A stretch of DNA of 64,000 nt from Escherichia phage TrudiGerster: the sequence record MZ501108, one strand, 5' to 3'. Below, in pieces: positions 32,780-51,813 of this stretch (the stretch's first letter is position 1; every line of letters begins with the position of its first letter). The notes under the pieces were generated by a model. The model was given only the letters and a program-made list of their open reading frames with translations, was not told where the DNA came from and made no database searches. The translations under genes were made by a program, and so were the position numbers.

Positions 32780-32850
32780 GTACAATTTTTATTTTTCTGC
32801 TTCGGACTTTCTTATCAATCCGAAACTTTCTCTCTCAAATTTATGTATAT

Positions 32851-32879
32851 ATTATACAATAATTATGAACTGTTGCCAA
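32851..32879 (-). promoter_or_regulatory. early promoter (minus strand), distal tandem copy
   Basis: minus strand TTGGCA - 17 nt - TATAAT followed by the same ATATACATAAATTTGAGAG box; overlaps 3' end of helicase gene. Confidence 0.45.
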
Positions 32880-42685: not shown

Positions 42686-42714
42686 AATTGATCCTCTCAT
42701 CAATTTATATAAAT

Positions 42715-42743
42715 ATTATATATTAAAATTGAGCTGAAAGCAA
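42715..42743 (-). promoter_or_regulatory. early promoter
   Basis: minus strand TTGCTT - 17 nt - TATAAT followed by ATTTATATAAATTGATGAGAGGA. Confidence 0.55.
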
Positions 42744-44916: not shown

Positions 44917-44947
44917 TTAAATACTCCTCTCTCAAATTTATGAATCT

Positions 44948-44976
44948 ATTATACAGAAAATTTTTGCAAGATGCAA
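44948..44976 (-). promoter_or_regulatory. early promoter
   Basis: minus strand TTGCAT - 17 nt - TATAAT followed by AGATTCATAAATTTGAGAGAGGAG and ATG. Confidence 0.6.
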
Positions 44977-45218: not shown

Positions 45219-47991
45219 TTCTAGCTCCCAGTTCTGCCAAAGCCTCTTCATGCATCTGACGTTCTTCATCAGTCATGAACTTAACTGGAATCGGCATACA
45301 CTCGATCTTACAGTAAGTTCTGTACCAGTCCACAATCTTTTCTGTATCCAAATCCTTTCCGATACCCATCATTCCCAAGTACATACGAGCATACTTTGGG
45401 TTTGCACTCTGACCTGTTTTAAGGAAGAAATCTTTCTTCTTACCTTTCAGAGCTTCGATAAATGGTTTGATTGTGACATTTGAACACTTCTTAATATCTT
45501 CCCAGAACATCTCGTGCATCTTATGGAAGAATGCAGCCCGATCGTTTGGTTTATCCTTGATATACTGTTCAACATGTTCAACTGTTACATCTTTAATAGA
45601 ATCAAGATGATAGTAACGAACTAGCAGAAGTTTTGCTTCATAAGCATCAGCATGACGTGGTGCACAATAATCAGGAGTTGAGTGCAGGATAGCTTTAATT
45701 CGCTCTTCTGTGTACTCTTTGTTTGCACCTTCGATAGTCCCCCAGCTTTCACTGAAGATATCAATAGTCGCACCCTGATCAAGCAGATAATAGCGTAGAG
45801 TACTAGTATAATTCCTAGACTCCAGCTCACGACGACGTGCATAAAGTTGCTGTGCTAACTCAATCCAACCTTCGTCAATATTATACTGCTCGGAACCCGC
45901 AGAAAATCCACTTGTAGACTTATCAATAAAGTAATAGATATTCTGAGCACCACGGTCGCGCCTGATTGCTTGAAAACGCATGTTTGGCGCTTGGTTACTG
46001 GTTCGAGTAATAACGAATACGTTATCGAAATAGTTAAAGTCAACCCCACTCGTTACAGAGGGACTACATAATAAACAATCAATCTGCTGATCAATTAGCT
46101 CATTAGTTGTGTAATCCAGAATACGACGAATATCCACATCTGATGTGGAATTTGAGTGAATTTCTTTAACTAACGCACCAGTATTACGACGTAACGCCAT
46201 ACCTTTTTCGTTCAGTTCATCCGGACCACAGTCAGATACTAGGATAGATTTCTCACCCATCTCTAGAGATGTTTGTAAGGCAACCCAAATGCTGGATTCA
46301 TCAGGGAACTCATAAGCATGAGCTTTTGCCAGCATTTTACGGTGATGATTATAGAACGCTACCGGTTTATCAAAGTCGATCAGAGAGCCATAGGCTTCAA
46401 TCGTTTCAGCACTAATATCACCATCAGACAGAATAACTGTTTTAGCTGTCATGAGAATATCACGAAGAACCTGAATACATTCACGACGGTTCTTAACAAC
46501 TGGAGCAAACAACAGGTCATTCATTACCGCGTCACATTCATCGATAAAGATTGTATCAATCTGACCAACAAAACTCTTGAATTTATGGATTGAGTGAATC
46601 GTAGTTGACATACGATCAATCGCACCACGCTTGAAGTTCAGCATATCTACAGACTTATCATACTGACCAGCACTAAATTTCTTTGCGTTTGAAGATACCA
46701 GAGCACGAGTGTTTGTTACCGCGATGAAATTCCCAGGAAGAACGCCAGCATCCAGCCACTTCGTTACCGCCGTAGTTTTACCTGTACCAAGACTTGCCTT
46801 AACAAATGTTAGGTGATCTTTTGGAGGTACAATGTTAATCTTCAGATATGGGACTTCCGCTGGAGAATCCGTATTTAACTGTTTTAGAGGAACACCTTTC
46901 AAGTTTTGTGGAATATCTCTACGACTATTGTTAACAAACGCTTTTAACGCCTGTTTACGACCGTTATTGAAGTAATCCTGAATATTACGACTATTATCTT
47001 TAGTTGCAATGTATTCAGACAAGGCAGGTTTAATCTCACGTTCTAACCACGCAAAATCAACACCATCCTCTAACGCTCGGTGATATAGTTTTGGAATAAT
47101 ACGCAGGTACACTCCATCCTCAGCTTCTTCTAATTCGCTGATGGTTTCCTCTACTTTTTCAGAAGCAGCCTTCTTACCTTTGATTTGATCGAGTAAAGAG
47201 TAGAACTCTTCTTTGAACTCACCCCTAGTTGTTTCATAGTCAACTAGGTTGTTTGGCAGATTTACTTTCGAACCCTTAACATACACAAGGCGTGGCTTAT
47301 TCTCCGCTTTAAACGGATCAACTATACCATCGCTAAATAAAGGGTCGGCAAAATAGTGAAGCTGTACAGAAGAATAATAAGCTAAGTCAGCAATATCAAA
47401 ACCATACTTTTGCTTACTACTATCGTTGATAGACGTAAATAAGAACTTTAACTGTCCCTGCGTCACCTTAACATTAGATTCCAGCATTAAGTGCATTCGG
47501 ATACCTGATTTTAATCCAGCCGAAGACGATGCATGAGCAATAAACCCTGCATCAAGAGGAAACATATCCTCACTAATACTATGTAACATCTTAATGATAT
47601 GACGTGCCATGCCAACAAGATTAAACTTGTCGTAACCACCAGTATCCTGAATACCATCCACGTCCATTGCAATAATGTGACTAGGATTAGAAACGTTAAA
47701 GTTTCCACGAGTACGACGGACATTATCCTTTGGAGCCAAACATTTACCACGAATAGCCACAATATGAGGATCTTGGGTTAGCCTACGCATAATAGGCAGC
47801 ATTTCAGCAAGGCTTTGCGGGTCAAGCTCTTCAAGTACATCAAATTTGAAGGGCATGGAAGCTGGTTTACCTTCCGGATGCTCTTTCGAGAATCGCTTAG
47901 CAAAGGTGTAATCTTCCACTTTAATTTCTTTCCAGATGCCTGTTGCTTTATCTCTGGAAAATCCTGCATGACCTTGTAGGATTGAGAACAC
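45202..47991 (-). CDS. putative replication initiator / origin-binding P-loop ATPase
   Basis: about 929 aa; Walker A SLGTGKTTA and Walker B-like IFIDECD in central region; likely GTG start after AGGAG (track ORF extends to 48057). Confidence 0.65.
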   Translation of the reverse strand: MFSILQGHAGFSRDKATGIWKEIKVEDYTFAKRFSKEHPEGKPASMPFKFDVLEELDPQSLAEMLPIMRRLTQDPHIVAIRGKCLAPKDNVRRTRGNFNVSNPSHIIAMDVDGIQDTGGYDKFNLVGMARHIIKMLHSISEDMFPLDAGFIAHASSSAGLKSGIRMHLMLESNVKVTQGQLKFLFTSINDSSKQKYGFDIADLAYYSSVQLHYFADPLFSDGIVDPFKAENKPRLVYVKGSKVNLPNNLVDYETTRGEFKEEFYSLLDQIKGKKAASEKVEETISELEEAEDGVYLRIIPKLYHRALEDGVDFAWLEREIKPALSEYIATKDNSRNIQDYFNNGRKQALKAFVNNSRRDIPQNLKGVPLKQLNTDSPAEVPYLKINIVPPKDHLTFVKASLGTGKTTAVTKWLDAGVLPGNFIAVTNTRALVSSNAKKFSAGQYDKSVDMLNFKRGAIDRMSTTIHSIHKFKSFVGQIDTIFIDECDAVMNDLLFAPVVKNRRECIQVLRDILMTAKTVILSDGDISAETIEAYGSLIDFDKPVAFYNHHRKMLAKAHAYEFPDESSIWVALQTSLEMGEKSILVSDCGPDELNEKGMALRRNTGALVKEIHSNSTSDVDIRRILDYTTNELIDQQIDCLLCSPSVTSGVDFNYFDNVFVITRTSNQAPNMRFQAIRRDRGAQNIYYFIDKSTSGFSAGSEQYNIDEGWIELAQQLYARRRELESRNYTSTLRYYLLDQGATIDIFSESWGTIEGANKEYTEERIKAILHSTPDYCAPRHADAYEAKLLLVRYYHLDSIKDVTVEHVEQYIKDKPNDRAAFFHKMHEMFWEDIKKCSNVTIKPFIEALKGKKKDFFLKTGQSANPKYARMYLGMMGIGKDLDTEKIVDWYRTYCKIECMPIPVKFMTDEERQMHEEALAELGARNDSEE

Positions 47992-48557
47992 AACAATACT
48001 CCTATGCTGGTTATTCGAATACTTTTCTTTAGGACTATTCAAAAAAGAATAGAACAACTATTACTAACGTCAACACAAATATTAATCATCATCAAGCAGT
48101 ATGGATAAGTTACCATACCTCAGTGCTGTGCTCTCTATACTCATATCCAGAATAGAAATTAGGTCTATCGGCCGCTAAGCCATTTCTATTTGTCCTCACT
48201 ATCCTATTGGTAGGTGACTACTGGACGTGTTACCATTCGCAGCTCTTTTCGTTCGCACCCCCATAAAAGCCTCTCCCTATCTAACGAAGCTAATATGCAC
48301 GGTTTGGATTTACCTTTCCGAATTCAGGGTACACAGATCACTTAATTGACAACCAACTAATATCGTATAAACATTAGTAATAGTTAAAACAACCTTTAAT
48401 GGGGCAGCCGAACTGTTCCGTATTGCGGATTGTAAACAAGAAAAATTAGTAAAATCAATTTTTACTAATGTCTCTCAATTCAATATAAATATTATATCAA
48501 CTTTTGGAGCATCCTGCAAGTAAAATTTTCCCGACGGTGCTATCAGTGGCCTTGAGT

Positions 48558-48587
48558 ACGGAGAAAACCGAGCCAAAGTGACTCGGT
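48558..48587 (-). terminator. rho-independent terminator after the paralog pair
   Basis: minus-strand hairpin accgag-tcactttgg-ctcggt followed by tttctcc. Confidence 0.55.
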
Positions 48588-48610
48588 AATCAGGATTGTG
48601 CTAAGGAAAA

Positions 48611-49018
48611 TCAATCATCATTTAGACCTGGAACATAGATTCCAATACGGTTTAATTGATGTTTGGCTTCTTCGAGAATATCTGGAGTGTACTCCCAAAT
48701 ATCATCTTCCACAAATAACAAATAAGGGGACTCACCTGTTTCGGGGTCACGTGTAATGGCGTAACCGCGTGGGTGGAACAGGGAGAAGTTTAGGGCAACA
48801 ATAAGACCCATACGAGATAGCTCATTCCAGTGCATCTCAAAATCTACAGGAACATCATTTTGATCTCTACTGGTAACAAAGATTCCTAGACAAGGATCTG
48901 TCGGGTCAGTAAAGGGGAAAGTTACACTAACCTTTTCAACCCCCAACCAACGTGCAAGGAGCCCTTCAGCCCGCTCCACTAAACTAGGATCAATAAGACG
49001 CCAAGATACTTGTTCCAT
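48611..49018 (-). CDS. hypothetical protein, paralog B
   Basis: 135 aa; shares W.EL..MGL(I/V).ALN..LF.P ... W.Y.P(E/D) ... G..(V/I)PGL with the adjacent ORF. Confidence 0.5.
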   Translation of the reverse strand: MEQVSWRLIDPSLVERAEGLLARWLGVEKVSVTFPFTDPTDPCLGIFVTSRDQNDVPVDFEMHWNELSRMGLIVALNFSLFHPRGYAITRDPETGESPYLLFVEDDIWEYTPDILEEAKHQLNRIGIYVPGLNDD

Positions 49019-49028
49019 TCTGCCTCCT

Positions 49029-49457
49029 TTAAGCAGTTAAACCAGGGATCTGATAGCCGAAATGACGCAGCTTCTGGATACCCTCATTTATTTCTTCGGG
49101 CGAATAATGCCAGCCCTCACGTTCATTTACCTGGAAAGCCGGAGCCTCCCCATTACGATAGTTTACTATCAAACGATGTTTAATAGGCATGAACAGTTTG
49201 TAGTTCAATGCAAAAACCAATCCCATGTAGTCCAGTTCTTTCCAGTCTACAATCTCTTCTACCCCATCTTCCAACATTACACTGATACCAATGCAGCTAG
49301 CTTCATCAGAGTCTGAAGTAAACGCGAAAGCAATCTCATTATTCTCACACCAAATCTTGAGAGTATTAATGGCTTCCTCAAACAGATTATCCGGCAGAGA
49401 ACGCCAGAAGTTGATAAGAAGTGGATTGATATTGGTTTCAAATAGGTTATTAAACAT
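49029..49457 (-). CDS. hypothetical protein, paralog A
   Basis: 142 aa; paralogous to 48611-49018. Confidence 0.5.
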   Translation of the reverse strand: MFNNLFETNINPLLINFWRSLPDNLFEEAINTLKIWCENNEIAFAFTSDSDEASCIGISVMLEDGVEEIVDWKELDYMGLVFALNYKLFMPIKHRLIVNYRNGEAPAFQVNEREGWHYSPEEINEGIQKLRHFGYQIPGLTA

Positions 49458-51756: not shown

Positions 51757-51784
51757 AGCTTTCTCCTCTCAAATTTATAAATCT

Positions 51785-51813
51785 ATTATACACAAATTTT
51801 TAGCTGAAAGCAA
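51785..51813 (-). promoter_or_regulatory. early promoter driving the Sir2/HAD operon
   Basis: minus strand TTGCTT - 17 nt - TATAAT followed by AGATTTATAAATTTGAGAGGAG. Confidence 0.6.

Follow-up and report, generated by a model that had tools for sequence, protein, structure and literature searches.

A covarying structured RNA in the leader of the D2 helicase gene of T5-like phages

Results

We analyzed a 64,000-nucleotide (nt) stretch of Escherichia phage TrudiGerster (sequence record MZ501108), referred to here as the window, and in particular the non-coding gap between a gene for a DUF7415 protein and the gene for the D2 helicase. The gap spans 47992-48610 on the minus strand (619 base pairs, bp), next to the stop codon of the upstream gene at 48611-48613; unless stated otherwise, all features described below lie on the minus strand. 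Salmonella phage rutana (Demerecviridae, Epseptimavirus) shares 97% identity with this region of the window, and matches to the region are found in ~500 T5-like phage genomes in GenBank. The T5 counterpart lies at 58.9-59.5 kb of 121.75 kb, in the middle of the genome. The original prediction, made from the sequence alone, had placed a stretch free of open reading frames (ORFs) at 48058-48610; the absence of ORFs stands, but the boundary does not, the true span being the 619 bp given above. The listed 951-amino-acid ORF begins at TTG 48057, which we rejected as the D2 start: it is a chance in-frame extension that is not conserved, whereas a GTG or ATG codon with a Shine-Dalgarno (SD) sequence is. 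The GTG that had been proposed as the likely start was correctly chosen. It begins at 47991 (47989-47991), is preceded by AGGAG at 47999-48003, and is supported by the sequence, by relatives and by the rutana annotation of 929 amino acids. GTG and SD are kept in all T5-like loci, and diverged relatives use ATG at the same aligned position.

The 929-amino-acid gene is annotated as a "replication origin binding protein" and is T5 gene D2, as identified through a published study (PMC3632103). D2 is a biochemically characterized bipolar superfamily 2 (SF2) helicase with a Walker A motif reported at residues 396-406 or 399-406, and D2 amber mutants make no DNA; an initiator role has been proposed only (PMC3632103). 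It resembles herpesvirus UL9 only weakly, and in the helicase motifs alone (Pfam E 5e-6; PDB E 1e-3). The earlier label "initiator ATPase" is itself no more than a proposal. A homologue search with the D2 N-terminal domain returned two fragments only, giving no alignment useful for structure prediction.

The upstream operon ends in an intrinsic terminator at 48560-48587 (ACCGAGTCA-CTT-TGGCTCGG + TTTTCTCC). Its stem, CCGAGUCA/UGGCUCGG followed by UUUUCUCC, covaries across clades through compensated changes, and the T5 RefSeq record annotates the same hairpin as a rho-independent terminator. A T5 early promoter follows at 48491-48519, with a -35 element TTGCAG (48514-48519) that matches at only three of six positions, a 17-nt spacer, and an extended -10 element TATAAT (48491-48496; TGATATAAT). 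The T5 RefSeq record has a promoter at the same place and nothing further until D2, and the promoter segment is 97-100% identical in all T5-like comparisons. The hairpin, the TTGCAG-N17-TATAAT promoter and a conserved downstream box had all been read from the sequence beforehand, and all three are real. For the box, the minus strand of the window contains five copies of the signature TATAAT-N13-TTGAGAG, where 0.25 would be expected (TATAAT-N13-(T)TGAGAG at 32832-32856, 42694-42720, 44929-44953, 48472-48496 and 51766-51790). A simple promoter and terminator scan missed both signals at the gap, the -35 element being weak and the stem imperfect. By analogy with the T5 promoter PN25, we take transcription to start near 48484, which gives a leader of ~493 nt up to the GTG instead of the ~420 nt suggested previously. 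In minimum free energy (MFE) folds of full leaders, the downstream box TTGAGAGA and a 5'-terminal hairpin (HP1) occupy 48438-48478; GAGAGA pairs with UUUUCUU around an inner stem CAUUAGUAAAA/UUUUACUAAU, in place of which locus L032 has UUAGACAAG/UUUGUCUAA. Downstream of the hairpin comes a U-rich tract.

To compare this leader, D2-upstream regions were gathered from IMG/VR, metagenomes and GenBank phages, and 35 distinct sequences were combined in an alignment, A2. From 5' to 3', the leader consists of HP1, a 25-nt motif (M1), a domain of ~340 nt, a hairpin (HP3'), and then the SD sequence and GTG of D2. M1, the near-invariant motif AUACGGAACAGUUCGGCUGCCCCAU at 48399-48423, forms invariant columns 1-25 of A2. 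Its GGAAC (48415-48419) can pair with GUUCU (48051-48055) to form helix P0. The domain is built on an A/U-rich double-stranded rod, P1, which measures 40-45 bp, has P0 and P2 at its two ends, and closes a multi-helix core of ~200 nt. The rod arms at 48346-48385 (5') and 48056-48095 (3') were assigned from inverted repeat I1, with its 15-nt repeats 300 bp apart, from duplex energies and from covariation. P2 joins AGUG-AU-CUGUGU (48331-48342) to GCACAG-CACU (48122-48131) through 4 bp, a conserved 2-nt bulge and 6 bp, and across clades it retains the 6 bp and the bulge with 3-4 bp beyond it. Within P2, the core proper (48132-48330, ~199 nt) contains several hairpins and helix P4 (48221-48226/48145-48150; GUCCAG/CUGGAU in the window and GUACAG/CUGUAU in T5). 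Helix P5 (48182-48190/48151-48159, spanning 48151-48190) encloses the M3 hairpin GGCU-UAGC-GGCC at 48170-48181, whose CUUAGCGG is invariant in 35/35 sequences and whose stem has two compensated pairs. Between P2 and P1 lies the M4 hairpin GGUAUGG-UAACUUAU-CCAUACU (48098-48119); other clades have GGGG-AGUUGCCAC-CCCC in its place, and alignment pairs 317-336 and 322-331 alternate between GC and AU. HP3', CUAUUC-UUUUUU-GAAUAG at 48035-48052, stands immediately 3' of the rod, and its position is taken by different hairpins in other clades (CUUUCC/GGAAAG in L032, CUAUC/GAUAG in L062). Two further elements were considered and rejected: pairing of M1 with the core of the window's type (CCCCAU/AUGGGG, I7) or with the start region is not conserved across clades, and a BoxA-like antitermination motif, matching by eye at 7/13 positions, is not conserved either.

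We consider it very probable that the gap encodes a functional structured RNA on the D2-sense strand. The domain in the window folds at -97.4 kcal/mol (z -3.0), with 0/100 shuffles as good, whereas its antisense folds at -69.2 kcal/mol (z -1.9), 28 kcal/mol less stably. The rod sequences are unrelated among six phage clades, and each arm pairs with its own partner. Consensus folding by RNAalifold on an all-clade MAFFT alignment recovered only P0, P2 and M3 and missed the rod, because the rod arms cannot be aligned by sequence; we therefore compared cognate with non-cognate duplex energies. In RNAduplex, the two arms of one clade pair with an energy of -24 to -36 kcal/mol, and a 5' arm pairs with the 3' arms of other clades at only -6 to -19 kcal/mol (means of -31.9 and -10.8 kcal/mol), and the true assignment over the six clades has the lowest energy of all 720 permutations (-191; next best -160). 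P1 has 30-37 paired positions in every clade. P2 exists in six sequence versions and P5 in seven, all of them complementary. When RNAalifold was confined to 16 sequences of type A (defined below) and phiR2-01, it returned 136 pairs over the aligned leader segment, 47 of them with at least two standard pair types.

A formal count was made in A2 over 31 pairs of P0, basal P1, P2 and M3. Overall, 91.6% of cells are paired, compared with 31-58% when the partner is slid by 1-3 columns, and 18/31 pairs are changed on both sides, a number reached in 0/500 shuffles. The doubly changed pairs include 9/13 in basal P1 and 7/9 in P2, where 98% of cells are paired. P0 reaches the same 98%, each change in it being confined to one side of a pair (G·U to A-U or G-C); it is absent from the fold in L065. 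A covariance model of the 3' subdomain (111 positions, realigned over 28 loci) has double changes in 13/16 pairs, again with 0/500 shuffles as high, and only 72% of its cells are paired, with the P5/M4 register of type A only partly corrected. Folding with covariation across related phages, the check that had been suggested for this region, thus uncovered a conserved structure, and the description of the sequence as "structured" is justified both by a fold beyond that of shuffles and by strong covariation.

The rod also indicates on which molecule selection acts. We aligned the P1 arms of 20 distinct sequences under a scheme that rewards Watson-Crick pairs alone and scores G·T and A·C as equal mismatches, and found 87 G·T against 6 A·C. 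Pairing is therefore selected in the D2-sense single strand and not in DNA, which is the only explanation of the asymmetry.

The gap (~617 bp) is present in ~500 GenBank T5-like genomes and 31 IMG/VR contigs, in a single copy each and always directly upstream of D2. Its length is 612-621 bp in most T5-like genomes; the exceptions all carry a homing-endonuclease gene or an insert of 97 nt. Exact-pattern scans of IMG/VR found T5-like contigs of 96-123 kb only, once each, and a metagenome scan with the D2 N-terminus yielded three loci only. The same layout with other sequences occurs in more distant clades, namely Yersinia phage phiR2-01, Pectobacterium phages DU_PP_V and My1, and Klebsiella Sugarlandvirus. 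Landmarks common across clades are M1 (AUACGGAACAGUUCGGCUGCCCCAU), GAGAAGUGA, CUUAGCGG and the hairpin loop AGUUGCCAC.

Between almost invariant flanks, a central segment of ~300 nt exists in two sharply different versions: type A in the window and T5, and type B in Lindwurm, Gostya9 and others. The core identity between types is ~35%, and the spacings are near-fixed nonetheless (M1-M3 221-236 nt, M2-M3 61-64, M3-M4 53-56). A comparison of T5 with a type-B Tequintavirus gives 92-100% identity for the upstream genes, the promoter, HP1 and M1. In the core, identity drops to 28-50%, and in D2 it is mostly 78-95% with dips to the low 60s. Between T5 and a type-A Epseptimavirus, the upstream genes are 45-85% identical, the 5' leader 98-100% and the core 88-98%. 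The core versions are therefore deep alleles under a constraint above that on neighboring proteins. Relative to the window, the D2 N-terminus is 89-97% identical in 17/17 type-A loci and 83-85% identical in 12/12 type-B loci, so that core type and D2 identity class coincide in all 29 classified loci. These identity profiles indicate that core alleles are exchanged along with D2, the recombination taking place in the invariant 5' leader. The coincidence of core and D2 alleles could reflect co-adaptation or plain linkage.

Outside this group of phages, the element was not found. With the leader as blastn query, neither 5,426 E. coli genomes nor PLSDB plasmids gave a match, and thus no host or plasmid homologue or mimic. 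When 185,579 species genomes were scanned for the pattern, three matches appeared, in unrelated metagenome-assembled genomes, and all were rejected by the covariance model; we estimate that ~8 would be expected by chance. The element is missing from relatives whose D2 shares ~40% identity. In Proteus T5-like phages, its position is occupied by another region with strong structure (z -5.2), and the 3' subdomain covariance model found no homologue in Proteus, Vibrio or more distant D2-upstream regions. Several Demerecviridae have 650 to >1000 nt of unannotated sequence upstream of D2, among them the Vibrio phages JSF12 (L076:1-1040) and Athena (L075:~860-1500) and Proteus phage Stubb (L033:730-1440). 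The Proteus region contains GCCUUAGCGGG, and a perfect sigma-70 promoter separates it from D2; Athena has nested long inverted repeats, in which a 281-nt stretch is thermodynamically unremarkable (z +0.2). In addition, the unverified 148-kb record of Salmonella phage GE_vB_N5 holds another version of the 3' subdomain (L080:1422-1531; 84 bits with model R1); the N-terminus of its D2 matched over part of its length, at only 54% identity. Either a further core allele or a chimeric assembly could explain this version.

We regard the leader RNA as a new family of structured leader or non-coding RNA; it belongs to no catalogued family. The Rfam search that had been proposed for this region came out negative: Rfam 15 (4227 covariance models) matched nothing in the whole window at gathering thresholds, gave only three chance-level eukaryotic microRNA or small nucleolar RNA matches on 47900-48700 at E up to 10, and gave only a terminator look-alike on eight relatives at E up to 1. 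ARAGORN found no transfer RNA or transfer-messenger RNA genes in the window. The structured region is unannotated in the T5 RefSeq record, a full-text literature search returned no description of the leader RNA, and the main text of a catalogue of ~10,000 candidate viral structured RNAs mentions neither T5 nor helicase leaders. The msr-msd RNAs of retrons resemble the leader in having long flanking inverted repeats and a conserved UAGCG-containing motif, and CUUAGCGG is similar to the branching-G context of Ec86. However, UUAGCGG lies here in an internal hairpin loop and stem (48170-48181), ~165 nt from the rod 5' arm and not directly after a flanking repeat, and no retron msr was matched in Rfam. 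No reverse transcriptase is found among the annotated rutana neighbors over ~9 kb (D2, two DUF7415-type hypotheticals, a Sir2-like protein, NrdD, an HNH endonuclease and several small hypothetical proteins), the Pfam scan of the window covering D2 and the two DUF7415 proteins only.

Discussion

Our results support the presence of a conserved, covarying D2-sense RNA downstream of a conserved early promoter, and with it both the regulatory leader and the small RNA that had been envisaged for this region. We lean, tentatively, toward a model in which the RNA is a cis-acting regulatory module of D2 that is processed by RNase III. In this model, the early promoter would produce a structured 5' leader RNA of ~493 nt on the D2 gene, host RNase III would cut the rod and so excise the core domain, and the D2 messenger RNA (mRNA) would be left with a new 5' end just upstream of HP3', which would set its stability and yield. 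The core, with its fixed helix lengths and spacings, would act as a protein-binding platform. Fixed geometry together with an invariant loop suggests a specific partner, and D2 itself is the first to consider, given that each core allele is invariably accompanied by its D2 allele. Flanks that pair around a structured RNA are also the design of ribosomal RNA (rRNA) precursors, in which 16S and 23S rRNA are enclosed by RNase III stalks. RNase III accommodates ~22 bp of double-stranded RNA (PMC6212723), a length that the 30-37 paired positions of P1 exceed in every clade. It is the combination of rod length and rRNA-precursor-like placement that leads us to favor cleavage by this enzyme.

Known RNase III substrates and leaders offer partial parallels, and among known systems, the element would work most like a module flanked by RNase III sites in early phage RNA. 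The stalks of E. coli rRNA precursors and the T7 R1-R5 sites likewise form a long duplex from the flanks of a structured RNA or cistron, and the T7 sites, like the leader, belong to phage RNA that host RNA polymerase makes early in infection. Here the duplex exceeds ~22 bp. The leader rod differs in being longer (~40-45 bp) and more A/U-rich than the T7 sites and in enclosing an RNA of ~200 nt that is neither rRNA nor a cistron; for the leader rod, moreover, cleavage is something that we infer. The lambda N, pnp and rnc leaders and the T4 gene 32 and 43 operators are also 5' untranslated structures, controlled by RNase III or by a protein and placed before a phage regulatory or replication gene, and autoregulation by the encoded nucleic-acid-binding protein is plausible. 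However, these elements measure tens to ~200 nt and act on the ribosome-binding site (RBS), whereas the T5-like leader has ~493 nt and the predicted accessibility of its RBS is independent of it.

Several observations weigh against a processed cis-acting leader. In eight clade representatives, predicted accessibility of the SD sequence and start codon is alike in full leaders and truncated mRNAs (0.18-0.50 compared with 0.27-0.66), and the differences do not all point the same way. A simple model in which processing would free an occluded RBS is thus not supported, and any effect in cis would therefore have to operate through mRNA stability or a bound factor. Three steps are inferred, namely the transcription start, RNase III cleavage, and passage of the polymerase through the U-rich tract that follows HP1, and the association between core and D2 alleles may be plain physical linkage. 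The ~200-nt core, with its near-complete conservation within types, goes far beyond the needs of known RNase III-controlled leaders. Finally, the sigma-70 promoter between structured region and D2 in Proteus phages fits an independent RNA gene better than a leader. Switching by other means found no general basis: a scan and MFE folds gave no terminator between the domain and D2, and a riboswitch-type alternative pairing to the start region, CAAUAC/GUAUUG, occurs in T5-proper only and is not compensated in L074.

The same Proteus promoter is one reason to entertain, as the main though less likely alternative, a stable trans-acting non-coding RNA gene lying within the leader, in which the rod would be a processing stalk or closing stem, the excised domain of ~250-340 nt would be the product, and D2 would merely be co-promoted. 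Such an RNA might serve as a cofactor of, or decoy for, a phage or host protein involved in replication, RNA metabolism or anti-defense. It would account for an autonomous domain with sharp cassette boundaries at the base of P1, for conservation within types (88-98%) above that of neighboring protein genes (45-85%), for fixed motif spacings with an invariant hairpin loop, as in RNAs of defined three-dimensional fold, and for the lack of a predicted effect on RBS accessibility; rRNA held between RNase III stalks is a precedent for this architecture. GOLLD, ROOL, OLE and HEARO, large "ornate" non-coding RNAs of bacteria and phages, are comparable in size class (several hundred nt), in many covarying helices with few invariant nucleotides, and in an association with phages. 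In contrast to these, the leader RNA sits in an mRNA leader at one fixed genomic position, occurs in T5-like phages only, and gave no covariance-model match even at E up to 10. Against an independent gene speak the ~500 genomes in which the element is only ever found directly upstream of D2, the missing terminator after the domain, the lack of any known partner or target, and the E. coli genomes and plasmids, which hold no homologue that it might mimic. The absolute linkage to D2 favors a role related to D2 whether the RNA acts in cis or in trans.

A role in replication initiation is the basis of a further and unlikely reading, in which the structured RNA would, like ColE1 RNA II or the T4 oriF/oriG transcripts, form a persistent R-loop or primer at which D2 is loaded. 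Like these and the T7 primary origin, the locus has a promoter followed by a structured or A/T-rich transcribed region of ~500 nt beside replication genes, and its strong promoter, A/T-rich arms and ~490-nt leader recall ColE1 RNA II (~550 nt) in particular. The RNA type is linked to the D2 allele, the locus is in the middle of the T5 genome, and D2, without which no DNA is made, is the proposed initiator (PMC3632103). Nevertheless, unlike ColE1 RNA II and T4 oriF/oriG, the leader has no recognizable hybrid-forming tract or RNase H site; no G-rich or C-rich tract of this kind was noted, and selection acts on intramolecular RNA pairing. The gap contains no iterons or tandem repeats, only short two-copy repeats, and those of the TTAGTAA type are helix arms whose sequence changes between clades while complementarity is kept. 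The GC skew has turning points at ~26 and ~54 kb, matching switches in gene orientation, and no inflection at the locus, and the likeness of D2 to UL9 is limited to the helicase core. Strand bias in T5 recombineering points to dominant unidirectional replication from one genome end, which argues against a dominant central origin (PMC10055335). The suggestion of a replication origin placed next to its initiator therefore finds no support in iterons, GC skew, the pairing of the RNA strand or the strand bias.

Selection on DNA and not on RNA is very unlikely. A protein-binding operator, a palindrome or cruciform belonging to an origin, or inverted repeats at the ends of a small mobile cassette would fit the 15-nt inverted repeats 300 bp apart, the two interchangeable cassettes between invariant flanks, and the homing-endonuclease genes and optional 97-bp insert nearby. 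However, the arms are wholly different in sequence between clades and yet complementary, the internal helices covary as well, the excess of G·T (87) over A·C (6) is explained only by a single strand of one polarity, and the element is never absent and never elsewhere. That the gap instead holds one or more unannotated small protein genes can practically be dismissed: short ORFs are present and some GenBank records annotate them, but no ORF is common to types A, B, L032, L062 and L065, although the RNA architecture is, and substitutions are compensatory in helices and not codon-periodic. The tiny ORFs that had been noted in the gap are indeed all there is, and none is conserved across clades. 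On the plus strand, an antisense ORF of 43 amino acids with a GTG start (48214-48345) is kept in type A, altered in phiR2-01 and absent in all other clades, and is most likely a by-product of RNA conservation.

Returning to the leader of D2 and its putative processing, we can envisage, as a speculative proposal to which we give limited weight, that the rod-closed ~340-nt RNA belongs to a new class of large phage-specific RNAs that RNase III excises from the D2 leader. The released RNA might be a partner of D2 in loading, targeting, priming or marking initiation, with incompatible A and B types of RNA and D2 among T5-like genera, or it might be a decoy against host defense. If this were true, the classical model phage T5 would have an essential, unnoticed non-coding RNA. 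T5 has been a model phage for decades, its replication initiation is unexplained, and its reference annotation is empty at the gap. Here, a ~490-nt leader that is among the most conserved sequences of the locus precedes a gene whose loss abolishes DNA synthesis and folds into a large covarying structure that no catalogued family matches. Together, this points to unstudied RNA-level control or an RNA cofactor in T5-like replication. To our knowledge, few natural RNAs of such size have a well-supported architecture, and the leader RNA is a candidate for structural study. The two deep core alleles, each accompanied by its D2 allele, make RNA-protein specificity readily accessible to genetics.

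Our analysis also has a practical consequence for annotation, since many GenBank records carry a wrong D2 extension or small ORFs in the gap. Several extend the D2 coding sequence (CDS) 125-150 nt into the leader or annotate small hypothetical ORFs inside the structured RNA; examples are S114 (L004, CDS from 1994), HMD-P3 (L116, CDS from 769) and Tennessee (L117, CDS 335-436, 569-721 and 866-). The names given to D2 in deposited genomes include DNA primase C, DEAD-like helicase and "U3 snoRNA-associated protein." One copy of the early-promoter signature lies directly after D2, which is thus apparently near-monocistronic. On the other side of the gap, the two upstream genes (48611-49457, minus strand) are paralogues with two DUF7415 repeats each (Pfam E 7e-27 and 2e-30).

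Two kinds of insertion vary the 5' part of the locus. An optional insert of ~97 nt stands right after HP1 in L017 (~1055-1155), L019, L035 and L074, at a point equivalent to ~48438 in the window. It occurs in genomes of both core types, is flanked by the direct repeat TTTTTCTT, has a hairpin of its own (GGGAUUUACGG...CCGUAAAU), and had no match in Rfam when searched on L074; its features suggest a small RNA element of mobile or modular nature. Because of this insert, many GenBank matches span ~894 bp instead of ~798 bp. An HNH homing-endonuclease gene separates the DUF7415 gene from the leader in L010, L016, L023 and L029 (a 178-amino-acid ORF ending at ~967 or 844) and in Shivani (L003:1016-1468). 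In the IMG/VR loci, this insertion replaces the terminator and the usual promoter by another promoter (…TATAAT…ATGAGAGAC) and leaves the structured RNA intact.

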